Made by a program: the position numbers and the translations under genes. The notes under the pieces are model-generated. The model saw only the letters and a program-made list of their open reading frames with translations. It was not told the origin of the DNA and ran no database searches. From an uncultured Actinomycetes bacterium (GTDB lineage Bacteria; Actinomycetota; Thermoleophilia; Gaiellales; Gaiellaceae): a DNA stretch of 64,000 nt. Location: positions 4,881-68,880 of the forward strand of contig CAVVQY010000005.1 in the NCBI GenBank assembly GCA_963750545.1, in the 5' to 3' direction. Positions within the stretch are counted from its first letter, which is position 1. Each line of letters begins with the position of its first letter. Positions 5,892-64,000 of the stretch are shown piece after piece.

Positions 5892-5934
5892 CGCCGAATT
5901 CGCGCGATCGTCACGTAGAGATGCCGCTTTGAGC

Positions 5935-38677: not shown

Positions 38678-38729
38678 ACGCGCCGAAGTCTCGAACACGT
38701 ATCCGCACTCGATCGAAGGGGAACCCGAA

Positions 38730-39143: not shown

Positions 39144-39160
39144 CCACAGGACGGCGGACT

Positions 39161-39187: not shown

Positions 39188-39204
39188 AACAGACCGCACG
39201 TCGC

Positions 39205-40518: not shown

Positions 40519-40539
40519 ACCGGTCTCCTGTCCGAGCCA

Positions 40540-40989
40540 TCAAAGGCAAGGCCGCGCCTCGGCGCTCGCCTGAGACGGAACCGCGCCGACCTGCTGCAAC
40601 ATCCCGAGCATGTCCGATTCGCTCCACTCCTCGGCGATCATGCCGTCTTCGATCCGAAAAACCGTGATCCCGGAGGTCACCAAGCGCTTGCCGGTCGGCG
40701 GGATTCCCATGAAGTCGCCGCTGTGCGTCCCGACCGACGTCCAGCGGGCCACGACCCTGTCGTCCTCGGCGACCAGGTCCTCAACGGGACGCTGGAGGTC
40801 CGGAAAAGCGTCGAATGTCGCCAGCCCGAACTGCCGGTGCATGTCGATCGTCACCGGCGGCATGCCGGAGAAGTGGCCGACGAGGCCAGCGCTGTAGATC
40901 CGATCATGCTCGGCGAGGAAAGCCTCGCGGCCTTCGCTCATCGACTCGAATGCGCGGCGGACGATCCGCTTGTTCTCCTCGAGCGTCAT
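40540..40989 (-). CDS. SnoaL-like 'ester cyclase' family protein (NTF2 superfamily), 149 aa, intact
   Basis: ORF 40540..40989 gives MTLEENKRIVRRAFESMSEG...DAFPDLQRPVEDLVAEDDRVVARWTSVGTHSGDFMGIPPTGKRLVTSGITVFRIEDGMIAEEWSESDMLGMLQQVGAVP. Confidence 0.85.
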   Translation of the reverse strand: MTLEENKRIVRRAFESMSEGREAFLAEHDRIYSAGLVGHFSGMPPVTIDMHRQFGLATFDAFPDLQRPVEDLVAEDDRVVARWTSVGTHSGDFMGIPPTGKRLVTSGITVFRIEDGMIAEEWSESDMLGMLQQVGAVPSQASAEARPCL

Positions 40990-41022
40990 CCGCGATCTCC
41001 GATCCGGAGGGATCGCATGCTC

Positions 41023-41433
41023 CTACTTCCACTCGTAGTACTTGATCTCCATGTTTCGTGCCGTCTCGTCGATCTCGAACTCGAACAGCACGGCGATGCT
41101 GTTCAGTTGGGCGAAGTGCGGTGAGGCGCTGAAGAAGTACAGGGCTCCGCGCCAGGAGGCGGCGCCGCCGCGGCCGAGCATGTGGCCGACGCCGGTTCCC
41201 GTGTACGAGGCGGCCTCGGCCTCTTGCGTGAAGATCACGCCGTCCGCCGACCCGGTGAAGTTCCCGTCCGGCCGATACACCGACGCGTACGTCGCGTAGT
41301 CGACGAAGGGCACGCCGAGCATCGTGCCCTGGCCCTGGAACTGGCTTTCCACCTTGACTCCGAAGCCGTCCTTGACGACACGAAACGCGGTGACAGACCC
41401 TGTCTCCTCGCCGATGAGCTCTCCAAATGCCAC
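41023..41433 (-). CDS. Hypothetical protein (137 aa from the GTG at 41433), embedded in the ester-cyclase array
   Basis: ORF 41023..41613 is the longest version. GGGAGGTGGAGAA-GTG at 41433 gives a well-placed RBS. The product is VAFGELIGEETGSVTAFRVVKDGFGVKVESQFQGQGTMLGVPFVDYATYASVYRPDGNFTGSADGVIFTQEAEAASYTGTGVGHMLGRGGAASWRGALYFFSASPHFAQLNSIAVLFEFEIDETARNMEIKYYEWK. It looks beta-rich, and I recognise no family. Confidence 0.5.
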   Translation of the reverse strand: MAFGELIGEETGSVTAFRVVKDGFGVKVESQFQGQGTMLGVPFVDYATYASVYRPDGNFTGSADGVIFTQEAEAASYTGTGVGHMLGRGGAASWRGALYFFSASPHFAQLNSIAVLFEFEIDETARNMEIKYYEWK

Positions 41434-41611
41434 TTCTCCACCTCCCGGTCGTTGACCCGTGGTGGGGGAATACACGGCGGGACGAGGCGTGTCAACCGAG
41501 TGCCGTTGCCGTTTGCCAAGCGCGCGAGCGCCGAAGTAGGATCGGTCCGACCGTGTGGCGCGCGAGGCCGCGCCGGCGGGATCCATTGCCGCCGACCCGA
41601 GGAGGGATGCC

Positions 41612-42043
41612 ATGCCCGAAGCCGAGAACCGCCTTCTCTTCCAGCGCTACTTCGATGACGCCGCGAACGGGGGCAACCTCGACCTGCTCGACGAGATCTT
41701 CGCGACCGATTACCTGCATCACGATCCGGCGAATCCCGATCCGCGACCGGTGGTCGGCCCGCAGGGGGTCCGCGACCACCTGATCTCGCTCATGGGCGCG
41801 TTCCCCGACCTCAAGTTCGAGATCGACGACACCGTCGCGCAGGGAGAGGAGATCGTCGTCCGCTGGACGGCCCGCGGGACGAACACCGGTGACTACTTCG
41901 GGATGCCCGCCACGGGCAAGCCGATCGAGATCACCGGGATGAACACGTGGAACGTGCGAGACGGCAAGGCGATCGAGGGTTGGGTCAACCGCGACGACAT
42001 GGGCCTTCTGCAGCAGCTCGGCGTGGTTCCGACACCCGGTTGA
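41612..42043 (+). CDS. SnoaL-like 'ester cyclase' family protein, intact
   Basis: GGAGGG lies upstream of the ATG at 41612, within ORF 41555..42043. The product is MPEAENRLLFQRYFDDAANGGNLDLLDEIFATDYLHHDP...GAFPDLKFEIDDTVAQGEEIVVRWTARGTNTGDYFGMPATGKPIEITGMNTWNVRDGKAIEGWVNRDDMGLLQQLGVVP. Confidence 0.85.
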   Translation: MPEAENRLLFQRYFDDAANGGNLDLLDEIFATDYLHHDPANPDPRPVVGPQGVRDHLISLMGAFPDLKFEIDDTVAQGEEIVVRWTARGTNTGDYFGMPATGKPIEITGMNTWNVRDGKAIEGWVNRDDMGLLQQLGVVPTPG

Positions 42044-42075
42044 CTCCGTAACTATCGGCAGCAGAGGAGAGAACG

Positions 42076-43035
42076 ATGGGCTTGGAAGCAGATCGCACGA
42101 GAGACCTCGTCCTACGCATGTACGACGAGGTCTGGAACAAGGGGAACATGGCGGCCGCGGACGACGCCGTCTCTCCCGACTTCGACGACCACCCGCCGAC
42201 CCGCTTCTTCGACGTCGGCCGCACGGGCCCCGGGGCGCTGACGGAGGCTGCGGAGTCCTTCCGCAACGCGATCCCCGACTTCCACGACACGCCCGAGCTC
42301 GTCGTGGTCGAGGGCGACCGCGCCGCCTACCTGGGGATGATCTCCGGCGTCCAGACAGGCGAGATGTTCGGCTTCCCGCCGAAGAACCGGCGGATGCGCG
42401 TCTGGGGCATCAACATCTTCGCGCTGCGCGACGGACTCATCTCCGAGCGCTGGGGCCAGTTCGACGTGCTGAGCATGATGCAGCAGCTCGGCGTCGCCCC
42501 GGGGCCCCCGATGCCGGAGGCGCCCGAGCAGGGGCCGGAGTACGGCGACCCGCACCGCTCGGGCCAGGACCCTCCGACCGACATCGAGGCGAACAAGGCC
42601 GTCTACCGCCGCATGGTCGACGAGGTCGTGAACCAGGGGAACTTCGACGTCATTCCGGAGCTCTTTCATCCCGACTACGTCGACCACGTCGCGCCGCCGG
42701 GCTCGCCGCCCGGGCTCGCCGGCGTCGAGGCGATCTTTCGTATGTTCCGCACGGGCTTCCCCGACGTGAAGTTCACGATCGACCAGATGATCGGCGAGGG
42801 GAACTACGTCGCCACGCTCGTCCACGGCGAGGGCACGCATACCGGCCAGTTCATCGAGTTCCCGCCGAGTGGCAAGCACGCAGTCTGGCGCTCGGTCGGC
42901 TTCTTCCGCATCGAGGACGGGAAGATCCGCGAGCACTGGGGCATCCCGGACCTGCTCGGGCTCCTGATCCAGATCGGCGTCATCCCTCCGCCGCAGGCCG
43001 CGAGCGCCGCGGGCACGGTGGAGGCACAGGTCTGA
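42076..43035 (+). CDS. Di-domain protein: two tandem SnoaL-like 'ester cyclase' domains joined by a Pro-rich linker, 319 aa, intact
   Basis: ORF 42076..43035. Domain 1 ends ...MFGFPPKNRRMRVWGINIFALRDGLISERWGQFDVLSMMQQLGVAPGPP. The linker is MPEAPEQGPEYGDPHRSGQDPP. Domain 2 is NKAVYRRMVDEVVNQGNFDVIPELFHPDYVDH...FIEFPPSGKHAVWRSVGFFRIEDGKIREHWGIPDLLGLLIQIGVIP. Confidence 0.85.
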   Translation: MGLEADRTRDLVLRMYDEVWNKGNMAAADDAVSPDFDDHPPTRFFDVGRTGPGALTEAAESFRNAIPDFHDTPELVVVEGDRAAYLGMISGVQTGEMFGFPPKNRRMRVWGINIFALRDGLISERWGQFDVLSMMQQLGVAPGPPMPEAPEQGPEYGDPHRSGQDPPTDIEANKAVYRRMVDEVVNQGNFDVIPELFHPDYVDHVAPPGSPPGLAGVEAIFRMFRTGFPDVKFTIDQMIGEGNYVATLVHGEGTHTGQFIEFPPSGKHAVWRSVGFFRIEDGKIREHWGIPDLLGLLIQIGVIPPPQAASAAGTVEAQV

Positions 43036-43454
43036 TGGGCGTCGAAGCGAACAGGGCACTCATCCAGCGCTTCTACGACGAGGGCTGGAACGCCAACAAC
43101 CTCGACGTCTACGACGAGCTCGTGACCGACGACTTCGTCGATCACCAGGCGATCCCGGGCCTCGAGCCCGGACGCGAGGGCTTCAAGATGCTGAACGTGA
43201 TGTTCCGCTCGGCGTTCCCGGACGTCTGGGTGGACGTCGATCAGATCGTCGCAGAGGACGACAAGGTCGGCTGCCGGTGGACCTCGACGGGGACGCACCA
43301 GGGCGACCTGTTCGGCATCCCACCGACCGGCAACAAAGTGAAGATCACCGCGACGGTCTGGTATCGGGTCGAGAACGGCCGGCTTGCAGAGGGCTGGATC
43401 AACCGGGACGACGTCGGCCTGATGCGCCAGCTCGGCGTCATCCCCTCCGGGTAG
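43035..43454 (+). CDS. SnoaL-like 'ester cyclase' family protein, 139 aa, intact
   Basis: ORF 43035..43454 has a TGATG overlap with the upstream stop. The product is MGVEANRALIQRFYDEGWNANNLDVYDELVTDDFVDHQ...SAFPDVWVDVDQIVAEDDKVGCRWTSTGTHQGDLFGIPPTGNKVKITATVWYRVENGRLAEGWINRDDVGLMRQLGVIP. Confidence 0.85.
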   Translation: MGVEANRALIQRFYDEGWNANNLDVYDELVTDDFVDHQAIPGLEPGREGFKMLNVMFRSAFPDVWVDVDQIVAEDDKVGCRWTSTGTHQGDLFGIPPTGNKVKITATVWYRVENGRLAEGWINRDDVGLMRQLGVIPSG

Positions 43455-43468
43455 CCGGAGCGGCTCTC

Positions 43469-43507
43469 GAGGAAGCGGCGGCGGGCGCCGGCCGCCGCCG
43501 CTTCCTC
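43469..43507. terminator. Perfect 16-bp GC-rich hairpin between convergent genes (candidate bidirectional intrinsic terminator)
   Basis: GAGGAAGCGGCGGCGG (43469-43484), a 7-nt loop GCGCCGG, then CCGCCGCCGCTTCCTC (43492-43507). It lies between the + stop at 43454 and the - stop at 43550. Confidence 0.55.
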
Positions 43508-43549
43508 AGCTCGTCGACGCCGGCGCCTCAGATGCGGCGTCGCCGAAGA

Positions 43550-45067
43550 TCAGCGTCGAGATGGCGCCCGTCGCCGCGCGGTTGGGACGAACGGCGAGAC
43601 GACGTGGGTCTCGACGTGCTCCGTCACCGGCTCGTGCGCGGCCCTCACGCCGTGCAGGAGCGCGAACGTGAGCCCGACGCCGATGAAGGCGATGACCGCA
43701 AGCGTCCAGTAGGCGAGGGTGAAGCCGCTCACCATCGCCTGCTGCGTGGCGAGCTGCTGCGGCACGCCCTGCTGCAGCAGGTGCGGAAGCTCGTGCGAGA
43801 GACGTGTGCTGAAGATCGTCGCTGCGATCGCGAGGCCGACGGCCCCTCCGACCTGCTGTGTCGTGTTCATCAGGCCGGAGGCGAGGCCGGTGTCGCGCTC
43901 GGAGACGCCCGCCAGAGCGAGAATCGAGATCGGCACGAACGTGAAGCCGGTGCCGAGGCCGATCAGGAGCAGCGGGCCGAAGAGGTTCTTGAAGTACACG
44001 CCCTCGACCGGGATCTGCGCGAACCAGACGAGCCCGACGCCCATCGCCGTCAGGCCCGTCACCACCACGTACTTCGGGCCGATCCGCGTCACGAGCGTCT
44101 CCGCGATGCCGGCCGAGATCACGGCCATCAGCGCCGTCGCGAGCATCGCGATCCCGGTCTGGAGCGATGAGTACCCGAGTACCTCCTGCGTGTACAGCGT
44201 CAGCAGGAAGAAGGTGCTGAACATGACCGCGCCGACGACGACGCCGACCACGTTCGCAGTCGTCACGGTGCGCAGCCGCCAGATCTTCAGGGGCATCAGA
44301 GGCGCCGTCACCCTGCTCTCGATGAAGACGAACAGCCCCAGCAGCGCGGCCGAGGCGATCAGGAGACCGATCGTCCGGGCCGATGTCCAGCCGACGTCCG
44401 GCGCCTTCGAGATCGCGTAGACGAGCAGGATGATCGAGCCGGTGACCGTGAATGCGCCGAGGGGGTCGTAGCGCCGTTTGTCGACCTCGACACGGCTCTC
44501 GCGAACGAAGAACGGGGTCAGCATGAGCACGACCGCACCGATCGGGATGTTGACGAAGAAGATCCACTCCCACCCCGCGTACTTGGTCAGGAAGCCGCCG
44601 AGGATGACGCCGATCGCGGCGCCGCTCCCGCCGAGCGCTCCCCAGACCCCGAGCGCCTTGTTGCGCTCGGCGCCCTCCGGGAATGCGGTACTGACGATCG
44701 AGAGCGCGGCCGGTGCGATGATCGCGGCGCCGACGCCCTGGACGCCGCGCATCGCGATCAGGAAGCCCTCCGACTGCGCGAGCCCGCAGGCGAGCGAGGC
44801 GAGCACGAAGACCCCCACGCCGACGAGGAAGACGATGCGCCGCCCGAGCAGGTCGGCCGCACGACCGCCGAGAAGGAGGAAGCCGCCGAACGTGATCGCG
44901 TAGGCCGTGACGACCCACTGGAGGTTCTCCGGCGAGAAGTCGAGCTCCTCGCCGATCGTCGGCAGCGCGACGTTCACGATCGAGATGTCGAGCACGGTCA
45001 TCAGGAAGGCGGCCCCGACGATCGCAAGCGCTTTCCACCGGTTCGGGTCTGGGAGGGCTTGGTTCAT
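43550..45067 (-). CDS. MFS transporter, DHA2 (EmrB/QacA-like, 14-TMS) drug:H+ antiporter family, 505 aa, intact
   Basis: ORF 43550..45067 gives NRWKALAIVGAAFLMTVLDISIVNVALPTIGEELDFSPENLQWVVTAYAITFGGFLLLGGRAADLLGRRIVFLVGVGVFVLASLACG...MRGVQGVGAAIIAPAALSIV. These are characteristic DHA2 motifs, with many hydrophobic helices. Confidence 0.9.
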   Translation of the reverse strand: MNQALPDPNRWKALAIVGAAFLMTVLDISIVNVALPTIGEELDFSPENLQWVVTAYAITFGGFLLLGGRAADLLGRRIVFLVGVGVFVLASLACGLAQSEGFLIAMRGVQGVGAAIIAPAALSIVSTAFPEGAERNKALGVWGALGGSGAAIGVILGGFLTKYAGWEWIFFVNIPIGAVVLMLTPFFVRESRVEVDKRRYDPLGAFTVTGSIILLVYAISKAPDVGWTSARTIGLLIASAALLGLFVFIESRVTAPLMPLKIWRLRTVTTANVVGVVVGAVMFSTFFLLTLYTQEVLGYSSLQTGIAMLATALMAVISAGIAETLVTRIGPKYVVVTGLTAMGVGLVWFAQIPVEGVYFKNLFGPLLLIGLGTGFTFVPISILALAGVSERDTGLASGLMNTTQQVGGAVGLAIAATIFSTRLSHELPHLLQQGVPQQLATQQAMVSGFTLAYWTLAVIAFIGVGLTFALLHGVRAAHEPVTEHVETHVVSPFVPTARRRAPSRR

Positions 45068-53873: not shown

Positions 53874-54560
53874 TCACGCCTCGACCCGGACGAGGTCGCG
53901 GGTGCGGTAGCGACCGCTCGGCAGGTCGCCCTGGATCAGCGCGATGAGGCCCGGGACGGATTCCTCCGGCTCCGGCCGGTCGGAGATGTCCTCGCCCGGA
54001 AACGCCTCCTGGTGGAGCCGCGTTCGCATGTCGCCCGGGTCGACGGTGTAGACGAGCAGCTCGGGGTGCTCAGCCGCGAGCACGTTCCCGAGCTGCTCGA
54101 GCGCCGCCTTCGAGGAGCCGTAACCCCCCCAGCCCGCGTACGGCTCCACGGCGGCATCTGACGTCACGTTGACGATCCGGCCGCCGGGCGGCAGCTGCGG
54201 GACCGCGAGCTGGATCAGTGCGAGCGGCGCAAGGACGTTCACCTCGTAGACGCGCTCGAGCTCGTGCGAGCGGATAGGTCGCGAGCGGAGGCTGCGGGCT
54301 CGGCCCGAGCACGCTCGCGTTGTTCACGAGCACGTCGAGCCGGCCGGCCAGCGCCATCGAGCCGGCGCCGGTGCGCGTCGTCGGCGACGTCGCCCGGCAA
54401 GCGCGACGACGTCGGTCCGCTGCGCGAGCTCCGCGCGCGCCTTCTCGAGCGCGTCGGCTTCGCGCGCGTCGATCACGAGCCGCCAGCCGGCGGCGGCGAG
54501 CTCACGCGCGAGCGCGAGTCCGAGGCCTCGCGAAGCCCCGGTGATCAGTGCGGTCGGCAT
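53874..54560 (-). CDS. SDR-family oxidoreductase; frame disrupted as sequenced
   Basis: MPTALITGASRGLGLALARELAAAGWRLVIDAR is in ORF 54324..54560. LDVLVNNASVLGP is in ORF 54070..54357. IVNVTSDAAVEPYAGWGGYGSSKAALEQLGNVLAAE...VYTVDPGDMRT is in ORF 53874..54242. Confidence 0.75.
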
Positions 54561-54622
54561 CAGGCCCTGAACGCTATGGGCGCACCAGGGTCTCGACGCA
54601 ATCGGACCTTGGTCCTACGACC

Positions 54623-55266
54623 TCAGCACTCGGTGATACCCTCGCGCACCGCGAGCAGCGCCGCCTGCGTGCGGTCGGTGACGCCGAGCTTCGCGAGGAT
54701 GTGGCCGACGTGCGCCTTCACGGTCTTCTCGGAGAGGCCGAGCTCGCGCGGCGATCCGCTTGTTCGACATGCCGCGGCAGACGCATCGCCAGCACCTCGA
54801 GCTCGCGCGGGGTCAGCGCCTGCGATCCGTGTGGAGATCTGGCGAGCGCGTCGAGGAGGCGCCCGGCGGCCTTCGGGTCGATCACGGCCTCGCCCTCGTG
54901 AGCCGCCCGGATCGCCCGGACGACCTCGTCGCGGCTCGGCCGACTTGAGGATGTAGCCGGACGCGCCCGCGCGCACCGCGGGCAGGAGCTTCTCGTCGTC
55001 GCCGAAGCTCGTCAGCACGATCACACGGCGTCTGCGCACGTTGCGGCGCGGATGCGCTGCATCGCCTCGACGCCGTCGAGCTTCGGCATCACGAGGTCCA
55101 TCAGGACGACGTCGGGCGCGAGCCGCTCTGCCTCGGCGACCGCCTCCTCGCCGTCGCCCGCCTCGCCGATCACCTCGATCCCCTCCTGGAGGCGCAGGAA
55201 GGTTCGCAGCCCTTCACGGACGACCGCGTGGTCGTCCACCACGAGGACACGGATCGAGCTAGGCAA
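54623..55266 (-). CDS. LuxR/NarL-family two-component response regulator; frame disrupted as sequenced
   Basis: The receiver domain IRVLVVDDHAVVREGLRTFLRLQEGIEVIGEAGDGEEAVAEAERLAPDVVLMDLVMPKLDGVEAMQRIR is in ORF 55021..55266. VIVLTSFGDDEKLLPAVRAGASGYILKS and the HTH ELGLSEKTVKAHVGHILAKLGVTDRTQAALLAVREGI are in ORF 54623..55039. Confidence 0.8.
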
Positions 55267-56398
55267 CCGGCGCCTCCAGCCGCACGATTGTCCCGGCCCC
55301 GGCGGTCGAGGTGATCGCGAGCTCCCCGTCGAGGCGGCGCGCGCGCTCCTCCATCGAGGAGAGGCCGAGCCGCCGGCCGCGCACGGCGGTCGCCTGCGGG
55401 TCGAAGCCGATGCCGTCGTCGCGGACCTCGAGCACGATCTGGCCGTCGACCGTCTGGAGGTGGAGGACGATCCTCGTCGCGCCCGAGTGGCGAATTGCGT
55501 TTTGCAACGCCTCCTGCGCGATCCGGAGCAACTCTCGGTCTCGACTCGCGTCGGCCGGGGGCTCTCCGTCGAGCTCGAGCTCGACGTCGGGCGCGCCTCC
55601 CTGCACGCGGCGAAGCACCTCGACGTGCTTGCGCAGAGTGCCGGCGAGCCCGTCGCGCTCGAGCTCGGGCGGCCGCAGTTCGAGGATCAGGTAGCGGAGT
55701 TCCTCGAGCGCCTCCTGCGACAGCTGCCGCAGCCGGTCGACCTGAGCCCGCGCCGCCTCCTCGTCGACCCCGAGCAATGCATCGGCCGACTCGGCGGCCA
55801 GCGCGAGCGCGAAGAGCTTCTGGCTGATCACGTCGTGCAACTCGAGGGCGAGGCGGTTCCGCTCGTCGAGGATCGAGAGCTCGCGGCTTCGCTCGTACAG
55901 ACGTGCGTTCGTCACTGCGATCGCCGCGTGGGCTGCGAGCAACTCGATCAGCTCCTGGTCGGCGGGCGAGAACTCGGGTGCGTCCTCCTTGTCTGTGAGG
56001 TAGAACGCGCCGATCACCTCTCCGCCAGCACAGATCGGAACGCCCAGAAAGGAACGCATGTCGGGATGCCCTTCCGGCCACCAGCCGCGGAACCGCGGGT
56101 CGCGCTGGATGTCGGCCGTGCGGTACGAGTCAGAACCTTCGAGCATCGCGCCGAGCAGCCCGTGCGTCTCGGGCAACTGGCCGAGCCGCGAGATCAGCTC
56201 CTCACTCATTCCCGCCGTGAGGAACTGGGCGAAGCCGCCGTCCCCGTTAGGAATCCCGAGAGCAGCGTATTTCGCGTGTACGAGGCCGCGTGAGACGTCC
56301 ACGAGTCGCTGGAGCACCTGCTCGACACCGAGGTTCGACGCTACCGCCAGCACCGCGTCGCTCATCTCGCGCAGCGCAGGACTGAATCCCTCGGACAT
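55259..56398 (-). CDS. GAF-domain sensor histidine kinase (HisKA_3 / NarX-DevS-like), 379 aa, intact
   Basis: ORF 55259..56398. The GAF domain reads LQRLVDVSRGLVHAKYAALGIPNGDGG...SFLGVPICAGGEVIGAFYLTDKE. The H-box is ERNRLALELHDVISQKLFAL. The ATPase part reads LRIAQEALQNAIRHSGA...LEVRDDGIGF...GLSSMEERARRLDGELAITSTAGAGT. It overlaps the response-regulator start by 8 nt. Confidence 0.9.
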   Translation of the reverse strand: MSEGFSPALREMSDAVLAVASNLGVEQVLQRLVDVSRGLVHAKYAALGIPNGDGGFAQFLTAGMSEELISRLGQLPETHGLLGAMLEGSDSYRTADIQRDPRFRGWWPEGHPDMRSFLGVPICAGGEVIGAFYLTDKEDAPEFSPADQELIELLAAHAAIAVTNARLYERSRELSILDERNRLALELHDVISQKLFALALAAESADALLGVDEEAARAQVDRLRQLSQEALEELRYLILELRPPELERDGLAGTLRKHVEVLRRVQGGAPDVELELDGEPPADASRDRELLRIAQEALQNAIRHSGATRIVLHLQTVDGQIVLEVRDDGIGFDPQATAVRGRRLGLSSMEERARRLDGELAITSTAGAGTIVRLEAPVA

Positions 56399-56466
56399 CT
56401 CGTTTCAAGCGTACGTGACGCTGGAAACGGGACGGGCCGACTCGTAGGATCACCGGCGGGGCCCTC

Positions 56467-57198
56467 TTGCGTATCGCTGTCATCTCTGACATCCACGGCA
56501 ACTGGCACGCGTTCGACGCCGTTCTCGCCGACGCCGATCAGGAGCAGGTGGACGAGCTCTGGTGCCTGGGCGACATCGTCGGTTACGGCCCGCAGCCGAA
56601 CCGCTGCGTCGAGGCGGCCCGCACGCGGTCGGCGATCTGCCTGCTCGGAAATCACGATCTTGCCGCCCTCGGGCAGGTCGACCTGGCGGGCTTCTCGCCC
56701 GATGCCGCCGTGAGTGCGCGCTGGACGATCGACGAGCTCGAGCCGGATGCCCTCGCCTTTCTCGAGACGCTCGAGCCAAAGGGCGAGCGGGAGGGTGTCC
56801 AGCTCTTCCACGCGAGCCCGCGCGACCCGGTCTGGGAGTACGTCCTCAGCGAGTCGGCCGTGCGGAACGCGCTCGAGCTGACGACGGCAGGGCTCGTGCT
56901 CGTGGGTCACAGCCACATTCCGATCGCGCTCCTGCTCTCGAACGGCGATACGCTCGCGGGCGGGCTCGCGAAGGGCGGCAGCGAGATCGAGTTGACCGAG
57001 GGCCGCTGGCTGCTGAACCCCGGCTCGGTCGGGCAGCCTCGCGACGGCGATCCTCGGGCGGCCTACCTGCTGATCGATCTCGAGACCCGGCACGCCCACT
57101 TCCGCCGCGTCCCGTACGACATCGAGGCGACCCAGAGCGAGATCCGCGAGGCCGGGCTGCCCGAGGCGTTGGCCGAGCGGCTCGCCGAAGGCGAGTAG
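56467..57198 (+). CDS. Metallophosphoesterase family protein (paralogue of 52018..52751), 243 aa, intact
   Basis: ORF 56467..57198 gives MRIAVISDIHGNWHAFDAVLAD...LWCLGDIVGYGPQPN...CLLGNHDLAA...LVLVGHSHIPI...LLNPGSVGQPRDGDPRAAYLLIDL. Confidence 0.85.
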   Translation: MRIAVISDIHGNWHAFDAVLADADQEQVDELWCLGDIVGYGPQPNRCVEAARTRSAICLLGNHDLAALGQVDLAGFSPDAAVSARWTIDELEPDALAFLETLEPKGEREGVQLFHASPRDPVWEYVLSESAVRNALELTTAGLVLVGHSHIPIALLLSNGDTLAGGLAKGGSEIELTEGRWLLNPGSVGQPRDGDPRAAYLLIDLETRHAHFRRVPYDIEATQSEIREAGLPEALAERLAEGE

Positions 57199-57237
57199 TC
57201 GACCGGGATTCCGGCTCCAGCCCCGGCCGGACGTAAC

Positions 57238-58626
57238 ATGACCGGCATGGCGACGATTCGTGCGAAGCCGGTGCTTGCGCGCGACCACTGCCTGGCGCCG
57301 GACAGGGTGGTCGACGCTCCGATCTACGGCGGGCGCTACGGCCGGATGTTCGGCGACCTGCCGCCGTTCTCGGCCGACGAGGGGTTTCTGCACATGATCG
57401 GGTCAGCCGGGGGCGCCTGCGACGCAAGCGACGCGGAGGCCGCCGGCGCGGACGACGCGACGGTCGCGGCCGGCTGGCCGTTCTTCGGCCAGTTCATCGC
57501 GCACGACATCACCGCCGACCGCTCGCCGCTGCGCTCGCACGCCGAGGAGGGCGCGCTTCGCAACTTCCGCACGCCGCGCCTGAACCTCGAATGCCTCTAC
57601 GGCGGCGGCCCGGTCGGAAGCCCGTACCTCTACCAGCGCGACGACCCAGCAAAGCTGCTGCTGGGAGTAGGAGCCAACGACGTCCCGCGCAACCAGGAGG
57701 GCCTCGCGCTGATCGGCGACCCGCGCAACGACGTTCATCTCTTCGTCAACCAGCTCCACGTCGCCTTCCTGCGGGCGCACAACCTCGTTGTCGACCGTCT
57801 CCGCGAGGACGGTGTCCTCGAAGCTGACGTCTTCGACGAAGCGCGACGGGCGACGATGTGGCACTACCAGTGGATCCTGCTCCACGACTACTTGCCCGGT
57901 CTTGTCGGACAGGAGTTGGCGACCGAGCTGACCGTGCAAGGCCCGCGCTACTACGCGCTCGGGGGCGAGCCGTACATCCCGTTCGAGTTCGCGGACGCCG
58001 CCTTCCGGTACGGGCACAGCCAGATCCGCCATCGCTACCGCGTCAACGCAGGTAGCGGAGAGCTGACGATGTTTCCCGACCTGATGGGCTTCGGCCACGT
58101 GCCGCCCGAGCGGGCGATCGAGTGGGCGCTGCTCTTCGACCTGCCCGGCTCACCGCCGGCGCAACGGGCCAAGCGCATGGACGGGCGACTGCCCGCGAGC
58201 CTGATCAACCTGCCGGCGCAGATCACGGGCGACGTGGACGACGAGGCCTATCACTCGCTCGCCGCGCGGGACCTGCAACGCGGCCAGGCGATCGGCCTGC
58301 CCTCGGGCGAGGCGGTCGCTCGCAAGATGGGCGCCGATCTCCTGGCGCCGGCGGACATCGGCCTCGCGAGCCACGGCTGGCGCAACGAGACTCCGCTCTG
58401 GTTCTACATCCTCCGCGAAGCCGACATAGTCGGCGACGGCGACCGCCTCGGGCCGGTCGGCGGCCGGATCGTCGGCGAGGTTCTCGTCGGGCTCCTGAAC
58501 GCCGATCCCGAGTCGTACCGGGCAGGCGACCCGAACTGGCGGCCGACGCTGCCTGCCGCGAACGCGGAGCACTACAGTCTGGCCGACCTGCTCGCAATCG
58601 GCGCCTCGACCACGGGAGAGAAATGA
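57238..58626 (+). CDS. Animal-haem-peroxidase-superfamily (peroxidase-cyclooxygenase) protein, 462 aa, intact
   Basis: ORF 57238..58626. The distal-His motif is WPFFGQFIAHDITADRS. Further motifs are RTPRLNLECLYGGGP, GDPRNDVHLFVNQLHVAFLRAHN, WHYQWILLHDYLP, FADAAFRYGHSQIR, LAARDLQRGQAIGLPSGEAV and TPLWFYILREA. Confidence 0.85.
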   Translation: MTGMATIRAKPVLARDHCLAPDRVVDAPIYGGRYGRMFGDLPPFSADEGFLHMIGSAGGACDASDAEAAGADDATVAAGWPFFGQFIAHDITADRSPLRSHAEEGALRNFRTPRLNLECLYGGGPVGSPYLYQRDDPAKLLLGVGANDVPRNQEGLALIGDPRNDVHLFVNQLHVAFLRAHNLVVDRLREDGVLEADVFDEARRATMWHYQWILLHDYLPGLVGQELATELTVQGPRYYALGGEPYIPFEFADAAFRYGHSQIRHRYRVNAGSGELTMFPDLMGFGHVPPERAIEWALLFDLPGSPPAQRAKRMDGRLPASLINLPAQITGDVDDEAYHSLAARDLQRGQAIGLPSGEAVARKMGADLLAPADIGLASHGWRNETPLWFYILREADIVGDGDRLGPVGGRIVGEVLVGLLNADPESYRAGDPNWRPTLPAANAEHYSLADLLAIGASTTGEK

Positions 58627-58910
58627 GCGACTGCACGCATCTGGACTCGATCGACCTCAGCGTGACCCCATCGAGCACGGAAGGCTGCTCCGAGTGCCTT
58701 CGCACGGGCGGCTGGTGGGTTCACCTTCGCGAGTGCATGACCTGTGGCGAGGTCGGCTGCTGCGACAACTCGCCGAACAAGCACGCAACGAAGCACCATC
58801 ACGCAACCGGGCATCCGATCATCCGCTCACGCGAGCCGGGCGAGGACTGGTACTGGTGCTTCGTCGACGAGGTCGCCTTCGCGGTCGACACCGGCGAGTC
58901 AGCATCGTAG
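58623..58910 (+). CDS. UBP-type zinc-finger (zf-UBP) domain protein, 95 aa, translationally coupled to the peroxidase gene
   Basis: The ATG at 58623 overlaps the peroxidase TGA (ATGA). The product is MSDCTHLDSIDLSVTPSSTEGCSECLRTGGWWVHLRECMTCGEVGCCDNSPNKHATKHHHATGHPIIRSREPGEDWYWCFVDEVAF, which has the Cys/His pattern of zf-UBP. It lies within ORF 58122..58910. Confidence 0.8.
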   Translation: MSDCTHLDSIDLSVTPSSTEGCSECLRTGGWWVHLRECMTCGEVGCCDNSPNKHATKHHHATGHPIIRSREPGEDWYWCFVDEVAFAVDTGESAS

Positions 58911-58993
58911 ACTCGCGCGAAGGTGTCGAACGGGCACCTCGAGCATCGATCCAGGAAGGGGGGCCCGATTTGGCCGCGACAGAGACAACGGCA

Positions 58994-59407
58994 ATGCAGG
59001 CCGTCGAGAAGATGTACGACTGCTTCAACCGCGGTGACCTCGAGACGATCAAGACCGAGGTCTTCGCACCTGACATCAAGTGGACTCTCCCGGGCCGTCA
59101 TCCGCTCGGCGGAGTGAAGAACGGCGCCGACGAGGTGCTGGCGTTCTTCCACCAGCTCAACCTCTCCGGCGTCCAGGTCGACCTGATCAACATCGCGCAG
59201 TGGACCGAGGACACAGTCGTCGAGGTCCACCGCGGGCACGGGCAGGTCGGCGACGCGAAGCTCGACGCCCTGAACTGCACGCACTACAAGGTCGTCGACG
59301 GCAAGATCGCCGTCGTGCAGGTGTACATGGGCGACCAGTACGGCGCGGACAACTTCTTCTGGGCCGTCAGCAAGCTCAAGCCGATCCCCGATCGCATCGC
59401 GGACTGA
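58994..59407 (+). CDS. NTF2-like (SnoaL-superfamily) protein, intact
   Basis: Within ORF 58694..59407, ATG at 58994. The product is MQAVEKMYDCFNRGDLETIKTEVFAPDIKWTLPGRHPLGGVKNGADEVLAFFHQLNLSGVQVDLINIAQWTEDTVVEVHRGHGQVGDAKLDALNCTHYKVVDGKIAVVQVYMGDQYGADNFFW. It is a close paralogue of the next gene. Confidence 0.7.
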   Translation: MQAVEKMYDCFNRGDLETIKTEVFAPDIKWTLPGRHPLGGVKNGADEVLAFFHQLNLSGVQVDLINIAQWTEDTVVEVHRGHGQVGDAKLDALNCTHYKVVDGKIAVVQVYMGDQYGADNFFWAVSKLKPIPDRIAD

Positions 59408-59420
59408 AAGGAGCAGAGGA

Positions 59421-59861
59421 ATGGCGACACAAGAGGTAGCGACAGGGCCGATGGCGACGGTCGACCGGATGTACCAGTGCTTCGGCGCCGGCGACATGGA
59501 GACCCTCAAGAACGAGGTCTTCGCGCCCGACATCCAGTGGGCCCTTCCCGGGCATCACCCGCTCTCGGGCGTCAAGCGCGGCGCCGACGAGGTGCTGGCG
59601 TTCTTCGGCGCGCTGATGGCTGTGGGAATCAACGTGGACAACGTCTCGTTCGGGACGATCGGCGACGACCGGGTCGTCGAGACGCACAGCGGGCACGGCA
59701 CCGTCGAGGGCATGGACTACCTCTTCCCGACGTGCAGCGTTTACACGATTCGCGACGGCAAGATCGCCCACGTCCAGGTCTACACGGCCGACCAGCACGG
59801 AGTCGACGACTTCTTCTGGAAGGCGAACGCGCTCAAGCCGCTGCCGGATCGGCTCGCCTAG
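59421..59861 (+). CDS. NTF2-like (SnoaL-superfamily) protein, 146 aa, intact
   Basis: ORF 59421..59861 gives ...MATVDRMYQCFGAGDMETLKNEVFAPDIQWALPGHHPLSGVKRGADEVLAFFGALMAVGINVDNVSFGTIGDDRVVETHSGHGTVEGMDYLFPTCSVYTIRDGKIAHVQVYTADQHGVDDFFW. Confidence 0.75.
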   Translation: MATQEVATGPMATVDRMYQCFGAGDMETLKNEVFAPDIQWALPGHHPLSGVKRGADEVLAFFGALMAVGINVDNVSFGTIGDDRVVETHSGHGTVEGMDYLFPTCSVYTIRDGKIAHVQVYTADQHGVDDFFWKANALKPLPDRLA

Positions 59862-59959
59862 CGGGCCGACTCGGCTGGACGACAAGAGGGGAATCCAGGT
59901 TCGTTGCGAGCAGCCATCCCGGGCGCAGCGCGGCGAACCCTGATCAGAAAGCGAGCGAA

Positions 59960-60259
59960 ATGCCGATCATCAACATCAGGTTCATCAAGGACGTCGTCGC
60001 GACCGAAGAGCAGAAGGCCGAGCTGATCGAGAAGATGACGGACACGTTCGTCGGCGTGCTCGGCGACGTCGTCCGCCCGTTCACCTACTGCATCATCGAC
60101 GAGGTTCCGATCGGGCTGTGGGGCATCGGCGGCGTCCCGATGCCGGATCTGCCGTACCTGGTTGGGGACGAGTTCGCCGAGGTGCGGGAGAAGTCGAATC
60201 AGACGATGCGTGATGCGATCGCGCAGATGGCCGCCGACGCCGACAAGGCCGAGGAGTAG
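59960..60259 (+). CDS. Tautomerase-superfamily (4-oxalocrotonate-tautomerase-like, Pro-1) protein, 99 aa
   Basis: Within ORF 59477..60259, ATG at 59960. The product MPIINIRFIKDVVATEEQKAELIEKMTDTFVGVLGDVVRPFTYCIIDEVP... has an N-terminal Met-Pro and the beta-alpha-beta pattern of 4-OT-family members. Confidence 0.7.
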   Translation: MPIINIRFIKDVVATEEQKAELIEKMTDTFVGVLGDVVRPFTYCIIDEVPIGLWGIGGVPMPDLPYLVGDEFAEVREKSNQTMRDAIAQMAADADKAEE

Positions 60260-60267
60260 CCGCCTCG

Positions 60268-61196
60268 ATGTCGGCTTCCGAAGAAGCGAAAGAGATCATC
60301 CGGCGCTGGAACGAGGAGGGCTGGTCGGGCGGAAAGTACGAGCTCGCCCACGAGATCATCTCGCCGAACATGCAGGTGCACGGCGCCGGCGGCCAGGCCG
60401 TCGGCATGGGCCCGGACGGGCTGATCGACCTGATCAGGACGTGGCGCACCGCCTTTCCGGACGGACGCATGGAGATCGACGACCTGATCGTCGAGGGCGA
60501 CACCGTCGCGATCCGCAACACGTGGTACGGCACGCAGACCGCCGAGTTCTACGGCATCCCGCCGAGCGGCAAGTCGGTCGCGGTCACCTCGGTCGGGATC
60601 GACCGCGTCCAGGAAGGGCTCGTCACCGAGGGCTGGGGCGAGCTCGACATGGTCGGGATGATGCAGCAGATGGGCGCGCTGCCCATCGTCGGCCCGGGCG
60701 CGGTCGCGGCCGGGGCCGACTCGACGTGGGGGCCGACCGCCTCGAGCTACGGCGGCGCCACCGGCATCGCCGGACGAGAACCGGGCCATCCTCCGCCGCT
60801 TCGTCGAGGCGCTCGCGAACGCGGACGGCGACGCAGCCGGCGAGCTCGTCGACGCGGACGCGTTCGTCGACCACAGCCCCGGCTGGGGCACGAGAGCTTC
60901 GACTCGGTGCTCGAGACGCAGGCGACGCTCCGCGCCGCGATGCCCGACCTCGCGCTACGAGGTCGACGCGTCGAACATGGTCTGCGAGGGCGACCAGGTC
61001 GCCGCGCACTCGGTCGTCCGGGGCACGCACACCGGCGAGGCGCTCTACGGCGCCGAGCCGTCGGGCAAGGAGGTCGTCTGGACGCACAGCGACTTCGTCC
61101 GGCTCGCGCGGCGACAAGATCGTCGAGCGCTGGACGGCCACCGACATGCTCACGCTGTTCCAGCAGGCCGGCGTGCTCCCGTCGATGGGCGGGTAG
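60268..61196 (+). CDS. Di-domain SnoaL-like 'ester cyclase' protein; second domain frame-shifted as sequenced
   Basis: ORF 60268..61209 gives domain 1: MSASEEAKEIIRRWNEEGWSGG...TAFPDGRMEIDDLIVEGDTVAIRNTWYGTQTAEFYGIPPSGKSVAVTSVGIDRVQEGLVTEGWGELDMVGMMQQMGALP. Domain 2 is hand-stitched: ENRAILRRFVEALANADGDAAGELVDADAFVDH, then MVCEGDQVAAHSVVRGTHTGEALYGAEPSGKEVVWTHSDFVRLA (ORF 60977), then DKIVERWTATDMLTLFQQAGVLPSMGG* (ORF 60162..61196). Confidence 0.8.
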
Positions 61197-61199
61197 AGC

Positions 61200-62116
61200 T
61201 TGGCGCTGACGACCGAAGAGAAGCGGGACGCTCCTCAGGCGCGTGAGCCGCGAGATCGTCGTGGCGGGAACGTCGACCTCGTCGACGAGCTCTTCGCCGA
61301 GGACTACGTCGACCACGACACGCTGCCCGGCCTGAGCGCCCGACCGCGAGGGTTTCAAGCAGGCCGTGCAGCTCCTCCGCGGCGCGCTTCCCGACCTCGT
61401 GGTCGACATGCTCCACACGGTGGTCGAGGGCGACAAGGTCGCCGACTACCTCGCCTCCACGGGCACTCACCGAGGGCGAGTTCATGGGCATCCCGCCGAC
61501 CGGCAAGCCGGTCGTCACCTCGGCGATCGAGATCCTGCGCAATCGACGAGAGCGGCCGCGTCGCCGAGCGCTGGCAGCGCTTCGGCGCGATGCAGCTGCC
61601 TCCAGCAGCTCGGCGTGATCCCGGGCTGGGAGGAGCCGCCGCCCGTGCCGCCGATCCCGGTCGTGACCGGCGGCCGCGAGACCTCGCTCGAGGAGAACAA
61701 GCGGCTGATGACGAGCCAGCTCGCGATCTGGAACGACGGCGACTACGACCTCGCCGACGAGCTCTTCCATCCCGAGTCGGTCACGCCCGACGCGCCGCAG
61801 CTCCCGCTGCGGGCCCGAGGGCTGCAAGCAGGTGGCGCGCGTCTTCCGTGAGGCGTTCCCCGACTTCCACATGACCGTCGAGGACTCGGTCGCCGAGGAC
61901 GACCTCGTCGTCTGCCGCTTCCGCCAGACCGGCACCCACGAGGGCGAGCTCTTCGGCATCGCGCCGACCGGGCGCACCGTCGACTTCGGCGAGATGGCCA
62001 TCTGCCAGATCGCCGGCGGCCAGATCGTGGCCAGCTGGTTCCAGACGGACATGCTCGCCCTGATGAGCCAGCTCGGCGTCGGCGACGAGCAGCCGGCGGC
62101 ACCCGTCCCTTCCTGA
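61200..62116 (+). CDS. Di-domain SnoaL-like 'ester cyclase' protein; frame disrupted as sequenced
   Basis: TTG at 61200. Domain 1 carries NVDLVDELFAEDYVDHDTLPGL and ALPDLVVDMLHTVVEGDKVADYLASTGTH..FMGIPPTGKPVVTSAIEIL...LLQQLGVIPGWEEPPPVPP (ORFs 61200.. and 61366..61851). Domain 2 carries SLEENKRLMTSQLAIWNDGDYDLADELFHPES and MARVFREAFPDFHMTVEDSVAEDDLVVCRFRQTGTHEGELFGIAPTGRTVDFGEMAICQIAGGQIVASWFQTDMLALMSQLGV (ORF 61832..62116). Confidence 0.8.
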
Positions 62117-62155
62117 AGCCCATATTTCCGAGTCACCGCGCCGAGAGAGGAGACC

Positions 62156-63104
62156 ATGGCGAAGCCCGAGCAAATCACCAATGAAGACAAGGCCAACCAG
62201 TGGGACCGGATCGTCACAGCAGACGACTCCACCGAGATCGCCAACAAGGCGATCATCGCCCGCTACGTCTACGCGACGAACCTGATGGACATGGACACGT
62301 TCGACGGGTACGTCGCGGAGGACTACGTCGAGCACGACCCGATCCCGGGCCAGAAGCCCGGCCGCGACGGCCTCAAGGAGGCCTACAAGATCTTCGCCGG
62401 ACCCTTCTCCGACGCCGTCTTCGTCTTCGCCGACCTGTTCGCGGAAGGCGACCTCGTCTTCGGCCGCGGCGAGATCAGCGGCACGAACGACGGGGACTTC
62501 TTCGGCATCCCGGCGACCAACAAGAAGATCGAGTGGACCGGCACGCGCCTGTTCCGCATGAAGGACAACAAGGTCACCGACGGCTGGTTCAACGCAGACC
62601 TGGCCGGGATCTTCGTCCAGATGGGCGTCGCACCCGCTCCGCCCGGCCCGCCACCGCCCGATCCGCCGCCGACGATGCCGACCGGCGCGCCCGGAACGCG
62701 CGAGGAGTGCAAGGCGATCATGCACAAGCTGATCGACGACGTCTGGGCCAAGGGCAACGTCGACCTCGCCGACGAGCTCTTCCATCCCGAGGCGATCTGC
62801 CCCAGCGCAGCCGTCCCTTCCGGTCGGGCCGGAGGGCACGAAGATGATCGTGAAGATGGTGCGCGACGCGTTCCCGGACTACTGGGTCCGCATCGACCTG
62901 ATCGCCGCCGAGGCCGACCGCGTCGGCGCGCGGATCACGCAGGGCGGCACGCACAACGGCGACTTCTTCGGCATCCCGCCGACCGGCAAGACGGTCGAGT
63001 GGACCGAGATGGCGATCCTCCGCATCGGCGACGGGAAGATCCTCGCCACGTGGTTCGACAGCGACATCGCGGGCCTCATGCAGCAGCTCGGCGTGGCGGG
63101 CTGA
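62156..63104 (+). CDS. Di-domain SnoaL-like 'ester cyclase' protein; one frame shift near 62810
   Basis: Hand translation from the ATG at 62156 (RBS gagaggag); this frame stays open to the window end, so it is absent from the ORF track. Domain 1 reads MAKPEQITNEDKANQWDR...NKAIIARYVYATNLMDMDTFDGYVAEDYVEHDPIPGQ...DFFGIPATNKKIEWTGTRLFRMKDNKVTDGWFNADLAGIFVQMGVAPAPPGPPPPDPPP. Domain 2 starts in the same frame (ECKAIMHKLIDDVWAKGNVDLADELFHPE). It continues in ORF 62844..63104 (MIVKMVRDAFPDYWVRIDLIAAEADRVGARITQGGTHNGDFFGIPPTGKTVEWTEMAILRIGDGKILATWFDSDIAGLMQQLGVAG*). Confidence 0.8.
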
Positions 63105-63106
63105 GC

Positions 63107-64000
63107 TTGGCCACCGAGCGGGTCGAGTTCACGAGTGAGGGGCTGAAGCTCGTCGGGGACCTCCGCGTCCCCGACGACAGCCCATTCGAGGCCGACGGGA
63201 AGCTGCCGGCGCTGACGCTGACCGGCCCGCTCAGCGGCGTGAAGGACCAGGTCGTCGGCAACTACGCCGAGCGGCTCACCGTCGAGGGCTTCGTCACGCT
63301 CGCCTTCGACCACCGCAACTTCGGCGACAGCGAGGGCGAGCCGCGCCAGCACGAGGACTCGGCCGGCAAGCTCGCCGACCTGCGCGACGCGGTCGGCTAC
63401 CTGGCCTCGCGTCCGGAGGTGGATCCCGACCGGATCGCGGTCGTCGGGGTCTGCCTCGGCGGCGGCTACGCGGTACGCGCCGGAGCGTACGACCCGCGCG
63501 TGCGGGCGATCGCCGGCGTAGGCGGCGCATACAACAGCCCGCACCGCCTTCGGGGCATGCTCGGCGCGGACGGCTATCGCGGCATGCTGGCCGGCGCCGT
63601 CGAGAACCTCGAGCGCGAGCGGAGCGGCGGCGAGATCGCCTACGTCCCGGCCGTCGCCACGGACGGCCCGGCGCTGATGCCCGGCCAGGAGCCGTTCGAC
63701 TACTACGGCACCGAGCGCTCGGCGAGCGCCGTCTGGGAGAACCGGATGACGGTCGACTCGCGGTACCAGCTGCTGACGCTCGACTCGCTCTCGGCCGCAG
63801 AGCTGCTCGACCGCACCCCGTTCCTCGTCGTCCACGGCACGGTCGACGCCTACTGCACGCCGGAAGGCGCCCAGGCGGTCTTCGACCGCGCGACGGGCCC
63901 GAAGGAGATCGAGTGGATCGAGACCCCGAACCACATCGACATCTACGACCGCCCCGAGCTCGTCGACCCGGCCGTCAAGCGGGTGGCGAGGTTCCTGGGC
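63107..64000 (+). CDS. Alpha/beta hydrolase, dienelactone-hydrolase-like (GxCxGG nucleophile elbow); 3' end runs off the window
   Basis: Hand translation from the TTG at 63107; the ORF is open-ended and not in the track. It reads LATERVEFTSEGLKLVGDLRVPDD...LPALTLTGPLSGVKDQVVGNYAERLTVEGFVTLAFDHRNFGDSEGEPR...DPDRIAVVGVCLGGGYAVRAGAYDPRVRAIAGV...FLVVHGTVDAYCTPEGAQAVF...IEWIETPNHIDIYD. There is no stop before 64000. Confidence 0.75.
   Translation, partial: MATERVEFTSEGLKLVGDLRVPDDSPFEADGKLPALTLTGPLSGVKDQVVGNYAERLTVEGFVTLAFDHRNFGDSEGEPRQHEDSAGKLADLRDAVGYLASRPEVDPDRIAVVGVCLGGGYAVRAGAYDPRVRAIAGVGGAYNSPHRLRGMLGADGYRGMLAGAVENLERERSGGEIAYVPAVATDGPALMPGQEPFDYYGTERSASAVWENRMTVDSRYQLLTLDSLSAAELLDRTPFLVVHGTVDAYCTPEGAQAVFDRATGPKEIEWIETPNHIDIYDRPELVDPAVKRVARFLG

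Follow-up and report, generated by a model that had tools for sequence, protein, structure and literature searches.

The DNA analyzed here, a window of 64,000 nucleotides (nt) from an uncultured Actinomycetes bacterium of the Gaiellaceae, carries at its end a forward-strand run of genes for a metallophosphoesterase, a heme peroxidase, a small zf-UBP zinc-finger protein, two NTF2-like proteins (NTF2a and NTF2b), a Pro-1 tautomerase, three two-domain SnoaL proteins (g6, g7 and g8) and an alpha/beta hydrolase. On balance, we lean towards an explanation in which this run is made up of two units. Unit 2 (58994 to beyond 64000) would be the 5' half of a conserved metabolic island acting on an enolizable carbonyl compound, Unit 1 (56467-58910), i.e., the metallophosphoesterase, peroxidase and zf-UBP genes, is best seen as a lineage-specific neighbor of this island, and the frame breaks found in g6, g7 and g8 would be artifacts. 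The island appears to be an undescribed combination built from known enzyme families. No description of this gene combination was found in the literature on the cluster and its parts, and no protein reaches a curated or equivalog cut-off of NCBIfam, in agreement with a first-pass annotation of the same sequence, which had found no match between the gene set and any known operon.

Genes were called from third-position G+C (GC3; the window has a G+C content of ~70%) together with three-frame translations, and families were assigned by Pfam gathering scores, with NCBIfam cut-offs, searches of the PDB by sequence and Rfam used in addition. Loci of relatives are referred to by L-numbers, and phylum names are those given in the record titles. 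The case for an island is based mainly on the surroundings of the tautomerase gene. Close relatives of this protein are frequent in metagenomes (at least 313 at 70-95% identity); a genome scan with the single tautomerase gave mostly close relatives, and an alignment query, combined with tblastn mapping, was used instead. The same gene order around the tautomerase was found in Chloroflexota (L067, L082, L083, L084 and L087), in metagenome-assembled genomes (MAGs) of Bipolaricaulia (L085), Dormibacterota (L086) and Acidobacteriota (L077, partial), in the isolate Corallococcus llansteffanensis CA051B (L081, Myxococcota) and in a second Gaiellaceae MAG (L078), with local variations of the module between loci. 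Loci labelled with six phyla share this order, which upholds the earlier proposal that the tautomerase, NTF2 and SnoaL genes belong together.

The Chloroflexi MAG L067 illustrates the composition of the module. Here, genes for a ThiJ-like protein, a thiamine pyrophosphate (TPP) enzyme, a 152-residue protein without a Pfam match and two SnoaL_2 proteins are followed by a tautomerase-SnoaL fusion, a second, unfused tautomerase, three SnoaL proteins, a GMC oxidoreductase, a DJ-1/PfpI protein, a glyoxalase-fold protein and an AGE-like protein; the context contains no peroxidase. Amino-acid identities to the distant loci are 59-78% for the tautomerase, 44-58% for NTF2b and 51-88% for g6 domain 1 (37% in the partial L077). 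Of the nine distant loci compared, eight have an NTF2a orthologue (46-83% identity), and single-domain SnoaL genes of these loci show 43-67% identity to g8 domain 2. Cross-phylum identities reach 60-94% for the TPP enzyme and 62-86% for the ThiJ-like protein. Hydrolase homologues inside the distant modules are only 30-38% identical, and the hydrolase is not a constant member of the island. The partners that are conserved include the TPP enzyme, which resembles benzoylformate decarboxylase (BFD), the GMC, ThiJ/DJ-1 and glyoxalase-fold proteins, and not a peroxidase or a dienelactone hydrolase. The island has probably moved between phyla, and identities as high as these would fit horizontal spread.

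Fusions of a tautomerase to a SnoaL domain occur in L067 and in L081-L085, where they match the window tautomerase (69%) and g6 domain 1 (56%). Examples are found at 7168-7959 in L067, 10001-10765 in L081, 10001-10768 in L083, 3426-4205 and 4660-5361 in L084, and 8368-9057 in L085. The Dormibacterota locus L086 harbors the core of NTF2, tautomerase, SnoaL_2, g6 and g8 genes twice in tandem (1364-4923 and 5858-8694). Two conserved proteins without a Pfam or NCBIfam match were also noted, i.e., a 196-residue protein in the window (41023-41613, reverse strand) and the 152-residue protein of L067 (5658-6116).

None of the ThiJ-like, TPP, GMC, DJ-1 and glyoxalase-fold partners is encoded inside the window, which ends within the hydrolase gene. 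The island probably continues past position 64000, because ThiJ-like and BFD-like TPP genes are located 0.7-3.7 kb downstream of the hydrolase gene in the relatives L002, L003, L005 and L071. In L002, L005 and L071 the TPP gene is followed by one for a further NTF2-like protein, and subsets of the other partners are found downstream: a GMC oxidoreductase in L071, DJ-1/PfpI and glyoxalase-fold proteins in L005, and an AGE-like protein in L078.

The peroxidase shows a different distribution. A scan using one genome per species yielded 66 loci with peroxidase relatives, and the full set from peroxidase to hydrolase was found only in the closest of these (L001-L005 and L057) and in L071, a locus taken from a different collection. 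These loci are all from soil MAGs of Gaiellaceae-like bacteria, and their peroxidases are 81-91% identical. The window is syntenic with L001, L003, L004 and L057 at ~84-87% nucleotide identity, i.e., the arrangement is beyond chance, and gives fragmented matches to L002 and L005 (74-86%). In the ~55 more distant loci, the peroxidase gene has unrelated neighbors such as uvrB and the array is missing, and neighbor clustering over the 66 loci recovered lineage synteny only (uvrB, genes of the major facilitator superfamily (MFS) and membrane proteins), with an occasional zf-UBP gene. Conversely, no peroxidase is found within 10 kb in ~10 tautomerase-array loci of six phyla, among them the Gaiellaceae MAG L078. 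Co-occurrence of An_peroxidase, zf-UBP and ester-cyclase genes, named in the first-pass annotation as a check on its proposal, breaks down outside one shallow clade.

These distributions also bear on the idea that the genes from peroxidase to hydrolase form a single nine-gene operon, in which the peroxidase would start the oxidation of an aromatic or quinonoid substrate and the tautomerase, the SnoaL cyclases and a dienelactone-type hydrolase would process the product. Such an operon would be consistent with the use of a single strand throughout, with the ATGA coupling of the peroxidase and zf-UBP genes, with intact catalytic His, Arg and His motifs in the peroxidase, and with the position of the peroxidase pair directly ahead of the array in L001-L005, L057 and L071; in L080, this pair lies between genes of a second SnoaL cluster (cluster A, see below) and the tautomerase. 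We consider it improbable, however. The clade is shallow (dS, the synonymous divergence, is ~0.5-0.6), so that its synteny carries little weight, and both the distant peroxidase loci and the array loci of six phyla lack the respective other part. Furthermore, the short contigs L089 and L091, with tautomerases 94-95% identical to that of the window, carry a divergent SnoaL gene immediately upstream of NTF2b in place of NTF2a, zf-UBP and peroxidase (in L089 the next upstream gene is a membrane-protein-like open reading frame (ORF) without a Pfam record). Finally, the zf-UBP gene is separated from NTF2a by an 83-nt spacer with the only sigma-70-like match, a weak one at 58885-58913. As seen with this peroxidase, neighborhoods confined to a shallow clade can mislead guesses about a pathway.

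Within Unit 1, the data suggest that peroxidase and zf-UBP are a functional pair independent of the SnoaL array. The metallophosphoesterase gene is kept upstream of the peroxidase in L001-L004 and is absent in L005, where NTF2a and NTF2b are missing as well and the SnoaL genes are arranged as g6-g8-g7. In distant actinomycetes, a zf-UBP gene adjoins a peroxidase homologue downstream in L012 (~11410) and upstream in the Kitasatospora loci L035, L039 and L040 (~9723-10000). One MAG, MFD02809.bin.2.181, contributes two 32-kb contigs (L004 and L057), each with the whole peroxidase-to-hydrolase array, which could reflect a genuine duplication or the presence of more than one strain in the bin.

In the peroxidase, the distal His, Arg and proximal His motifs are intact: GQFIAHD, GDPRND and FRYGH align to GQFLDHD, GDVRSN and YRVGH of PDB entry 8s6c. 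The ratio of nonsynonymous to synonymous divergence (dN/dS) relative to L001 is 0.11. The Asp and Glu residues that link the heme covalently in vertebrate enzymes are replaced (Ala for Asp in IAHD, and no Glu in RNDV), which sets the protein apart from the mammalian enzymes; for the peroxidase superfamily, an -X-R-X-X-E- motif has been described (PMC4420034). A single domain, a length of ~460 residues and the distal His/Arg and proximal His are shared with the short bacterial peroxicins (family 5 of the peroxidase-cyclooxygenase superfamily), and the window peroxidase may be a member of this group, a placement drawn from these features. The role of the group is unknown (PMC4420034).

The first-pass annotation was silent on the fact that three of its nine genes are frame-broken. 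Its three di-domain ester cyclases (g6, g7 and g8) are not ORFs in the window, where the coding frame is unstable from 60700 to 62850 and switches 4, 8 and 1 times in the three genes, respectively. The breaks were located by alignment with L001 and L003, in which the orthologues are intact ORFs. Between 60766 and 62814, 13 window-specific indels of 1-2 nt were identified, 11 of them +1 insertions and none inside a homopolymer run. In g6 they are found at ~60766 (+1), 60894 (-1), 60952 (+1) and 61108 (+1), in g7 at 61231 and 61262 (+1 each), 61272 (-2), and 61335, 61472, 61534, 61599 and 61809 (+1 each), while g8 has a single +1 insertion at ~62814. The raw ORF 60268-61209 encodes one SnoaL domain followed by out-of-frame sequence, and the raw ORF 61200-61874 has no Pfam match. 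The events in g6 are confirmed by a third intact sequence from a short-read soil contig (L089); this gene is intact in L001, L002, L003, L004, L005 and L089; g7 is intact in L001 and L003 and absent in L002 and L089.

The 13 breaks are most probably consensus errors of the assembly, and the genes would be functional in the organism, because the corrected frames of g6, g7 and g8 contain no stop codon, dN/dS relative to L001 is low (0.29, 0.33 and 0.16, respectively, and similar between the two intact relatives), similar +1 insertions are found in unrelated genes, frame switching affects much of the contig, and L071, an independent long-read contig of a relative, is fragmented alike at other positions. 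The unrelated genes are those at 48433-50268, 52173-52578 and 54265-54398, all intact in L001. Among them is a short-chain dehydrogenase/reductase (SDR) gene, in which +1 insertions at 54265, 54357 and 54398 are evident when it is compared with the intact ORF of L001; for a neighboring response regulator gene, window-specific +1 insertions were placed at ~54750, 54929, 55029 and 55043 in a noisy three-way alignment, and the GC3 frame of the reverse strand switches repeatedly across 54435-55260. An analysis of reading frames without a reference revealed patches of rapid switching over much of the contig, with switches every 50-300 nt on one strand at 1800-39100 (in patches), 48433-50268, 52173-52578, 54265-55045 and 60766-62814. 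Wherever a close relative could be compared, the switches are window-specific +1 insertions in genes that the relative has intact. Patches of single-base insertions would make automatic annotation of this contig's genes wrong and badly fragmented.

If the breaks were real, the three two-domain genes would be decaying pseudogenes and the array would no longer function. The density of the events (13 within 2 kb, none in a homopolymer), the dispensability of g7 in L002 and L089 and a somewhat raised dN/dS of g7 (0.33-0.50 compared with 0.23) could be read in this way. Bacterial pseudogenes usually display a deletion bias, and the excess of +1 insertions is opposite to it. Together with the lack of stops in the corrected frames, values of dN/dS well below 1, the same type of insertion in patches of unrelated genes and the comparable fragmentation of L071, this makes decay very unlikely. 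Programmed frameshifting was rejected because the break sites are not conserved, the relatives are intact and unrelated genes are also affected. Split genes (in g7 and g8, the second half of the second domain starts with GTG or ATG) were discarded since all relatives encode one continuous frame.

The layout of the forward run and of the other genes considered is given in Table 1. The first-pass annotation had described nine consecutive forward genes with short gaps or overlaps. Strand, order and families (An_peroxidase, zf-UBP, two SnoaL_2, tautomerase, SnoaL and a hydrolase with a Cys elbow) are all recovered, with Pfam scores above the gathering scores throughout, but there is a tenth forward gene (Metallophos_2) ahead of the peroxidase and not all gaps are short. 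From the metallophosphoesterase on, the spacers are 39 nt, a 4-nt overlap, 83 (ahead of NTF2a), 13, 98 (ahead of the tautomerase), 8, ~3, 39 and ~2 nt. The start of zf-UBP and the stop of the peroxidase overlap as ATGA, read directly at 58623-58626, as reported earlier, and an AAGGAG motif is found 13 nt past the NTF2a stop. NTF2a and NTF2b are clear paralogues when aligned over their whole length, also as proposed. The earlier count of eight NTF2-superfamily domains in the run stands once the frames are corrected, and all eight match Pfam models well above threshold. Neither the window nor four related loci gave a match to Rfam, for riboswitches or any other RNA family. The G+C content is 0.66-0.69 at 38000-44000 and 56000-60000, where the SnoaL clusters are located, compared with 0.70-0.76 over most of the window; this mild dip would fit acquired DNA.

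Table 1. Genes of the forward run, the divergent genes upstream of it and cluster A, with positions in the window
Feature	Position	Strand	Family evidence
Metallophosphoesterase, calcineurin-like	56467..57198	+	Metallophos_2, 72 bits
Heme peroxidase, 462 residues, intact	57238..58626	+	PF03098 An_peroxidase, 81 bits (cut-off 25 bits), residues 100-356
Small zf-UBP zinc-finger protein, 95 residues	58623..58910	+	PF02148, 48.4 bits (cut-off 22.7)
NTF2a, SnoaL_2, 137 residues	58994..59407	+	PF12680, 45 bits
NTF2b, SnoaL_2, 146 residues	59421..59861	+	PF12680, 50 bits
Pro-1 tautomerase, 99 residues, 4-oxalocrotonate tautomerase family	59960..60259	+	PF01361, 36.5 bits (cut-off 22)
g6, two-domain SnoaL, ~308 residues corrected	60268..61196	+	Two SnoaL stretches, 186 bits (corrected translation)
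g7, two-domain SnoaL, ~303 residues corrected	61200..62116	+	Two SnoaL stretches, 212 bits (corrected translation)
g8, two-domain SnoaL, 315 residues corrected	62156..63104	+	Two SnoaL stretches, 190 bits (corrected translation)
Alpha/beta hydrolase, 3' end beyond window	~63107..64000	+	Hydrolase_4, 51 bits; DLH, 34.2 bits
SDR, frame-broken	53892..54599	-	adh_short match in fragment 53874-54242; 56% to L078 SDR
NarL/LuxR-type response regulator, frame-broken	54784..55266	-	50% to L078 regulator over part of length
GAF-HisKA_3-HATPase sensor histidine kinase, intact	55259..56398	-	Pfam GAF_2, HisKA_3, HATPase_c
Cluster A: cupin + two SnoaL_2 domain protein, four SnoaL genes (one two-domain), 196-residue protein, MFS transporter	39205..45067		Pfam

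Cluster A belongs to the same island as the tautomerase/NTF2 array, as judged from its relatives: in L005/L080 the peroxidase directly follows it, and the modules of L078, L081 and L087 contain orthologues of two cluster A sequences, A319 domain 2 and A162. In L005/L080 (1636-9650), two MFS genes together with cluster A adjoin the peroxidase; the window has ~10.5 kb between cluster A and the peroxidase, with queA and genes for a TPR protein, Ser/Thr kinases and a second metallophosphoesterase among others. The forward run is directly preceded by three divergently oriented genes, i.e., those for the histidine kinase, the NarL regulator (Response_reg and GerE domains in the intact L001 orthologue) and the SDR. 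Orthologues of all three are found inside the L078 module (5314-7897), between the TPP/NTF2 genes and NTF2a. The L078 proteins are 58-72% identical to those of L001-L004 and 50-59% identical to their counterparts in the window (regulator and SDR frame-broken); the intact kinase is 59% identical to the kinase embedded in L078. In the clade of the window, the metallophosphoesterase-peroxidase-zf-UBP unit sits between the kinase gene and NTF2a. The histidine kinase and the NarL regulator are candidate regulators of the island, and the SDR is likely a gene associated with it.

Several of the proteins resemble members of characterized systems but differ from these in sequence or context. The tautomerase starts with MPIINI, and 43 positions, including Pro2 and Arg39, are invariant in 20 homologues. 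It shares with the 4-oxalocrotonate tautomerase (4-OT) family the Met-Pro start, a beta-alpha-beta unit that aligns to 4-OT structures, and an invariant Arg near Arg-39 of 4-OT. In contrast to that family, the island tautomerases are 99-118 residues long with a conserved C-terminal extension, are fused to SnoaL domains in other phyla, and have no meta-cleavage pathway genes nearby; the NCBIfam cut-offs are missed (TIGR00013, 45.6 compared with 56.9 bits; DmpI, 27 compared with 70 bits). The solved structures closest to the SnoaL domains are the predicted ester cyclase 8ysb, followed by SnoL, AclR, IdmH, AknH and SnoaL. All eight domains match the fold family of the SnoaL/AknH cyclases (PF07366 and PF12680, named "ester cyclase" by NCBI), but unlike the polyketide methyl-ester cyclases they are fused pairwise or to a tautomerase, and no polyketide synthase gene is found in this part of the window or in related loci. 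With the NCBIfam model SnoaL_meth_ester (NF033407; cut-off 200 bits), the orthologue of g8 in L001 (85-91% identical to window g8) reaches 70 bits.

The hydrolase carries a G-x-C-x-G elbow (VGVCLGGGY, ~63443-63469, with the Cys codon at ~63452-63454). Its DLH match (PF01738; cut-off 21 bits) covers profile positions 23-129, i.e., the N-terminal half, and Hydrolase_4 is the Pfam model with the highest score. Among solved structures, E. coli YcjY (5xb6) and PA2218 (2hdw) are closest; they align end to end and have the Cys at the same elbow. The Cys nucleophile elbow and a DLH score above threshold are shared with the group of dienelactone hydrolase and YcjY/PA2218; in contrast to dienelactone hydrolase itself, the closest structures are of uncharacterized proteins, and no chlorocatechol or muconate genes occur among the neighbors annotated with Pfam or NCBIfam. 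For the TPP enzyme of the relatives, the closest PDB entry is a benzoylformate decarboxylase (6a50, E 5e-68), in agreement with NCBIfam. However, its score of 326 bits remains below the equivalog cut-off for the mandelate-pathway enzyme (493 bits), and the island has no gene for mandelate racemase or dehydrogenase. Searches of the PDB by sequence gave no match for the AGE-like protein and only weak matches for the ThiJ-like protein.

From these families, a reaction scheme for the island can be outlined in which cofactor-independent acid/base chemistry would be applied to an enolizable carbonyl compound. The tautomerase would interconvert enol and keto forms, and the SnoaL-fold domains would catalyze successive isomerization, dehydration or aldol-type steps. 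These domains may act as fixed hetero-pairs or as a complex, as suggested by their fusions, which are pairwise in the actinobacterial loci and involve the tautomerase in Chloroflexota, Bipolaricaulia and Corallococcus. An ester or lactone would be opened by the Cys hydrolase in loci that have it, the TPP enzyme would decarboxylate the resulting 2-oxo acid, GMC and SDR enzymes would supply redox steps, and the DJ-1 and glyoxalase-fold proteins would handle 2-oxoaldehyde products.

We favor a degradative or detoxifying role over a biosynthetic one because no scaffold-building enzyme is encoded in the loci. In a biosynthetic island, the TPP enzyme would act as a carboligase and form a scaffold, either an acyloin or a 2-oxo compound. 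Cyclases, tautomerase, hydrolase and oxidoreductases would tailor this scaffold into a small metabolite to be secreted, with export by MFS proteins. In favor of such a role, the solved SnoaL-fold relatives are polyketide cyclases, hydroxylases and a putative polyketide cyclase (SnoaL, AknH, SnoL, AclR and IdmH), the hydrolase is related to fungal GrgF, 505-residue MFS_1 transporters are encoded in or beside the array, and a methyltransferase gene adjoins the Corallococcus locus. This role is nevertheless unlikely, as none of the examined loci contains a polyketide synthase, nonribosomal peptide synthetase, terpene synthase or other scaffold-forming gene, partners such as DJ-1/PfpI, ThiJ-like and glyoxalase-fold proteins and a BFD-like decarboxylase typically accompany degradation or detoxification, and MFS genes are absent from the Chloroflexota versions.

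Several points weigh against the two-unit, degradative explanation outlined above. The catalytic roles are all assigned by analogy to superfamilies, as no NCBIfam equivalog cut-off is reached, and the pathway is a prediction from gene families and neighborhood. Genes for EmrB-type MFS transporters in or beside the array (window, L078 and L080), together with the GrgF-related hydrolase, also fit biosynthesis with export. As regards the boundaries of the island, L001, the most collinear close relative, has no ThiJ-like or TPP gene within 6 kb downstream of the hydrolase, which leaves some doubt whether the island extends past 64000 in this genome. In every locus of its clade, the peroxidase pair is located immediately ahead of the array, and in L080 SnoaL genes lie on either side of the pair, such that a local functional link is possible. 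The attribution of the frame breaks to the assembly, finally, is inferred from sequence comparison rather than from raw reads.

More tentatively, the array may be the catalytic core of an undescribed, phylum-crossing pathway in which a tautomerase and at least eight NTF2-fold enzymes, arranged in hetero-pairs or a complex, would be joined by a BFD-like decarboxylase, a GMC oxidase and enzymes of the DJ-1/glyoxalase type in the conversion of an enolizable carbonyl compound relevant to soil, by chemistry new to these folds. The cultured carrier Corallococcus llansteffanensis CA051B makes the island testable, while the Gaiellaceae-like carriers are known only from metagenomes. The NTF2-fold and tautomerase-superfamily proteins are a rich source of unusual cofactor-free chemistry, and a combination of one tautomerase with 8-16 NTF2-fold domains, including natural fusions, may be a lead to new enzyme activities and to a pathway missed by annotation.

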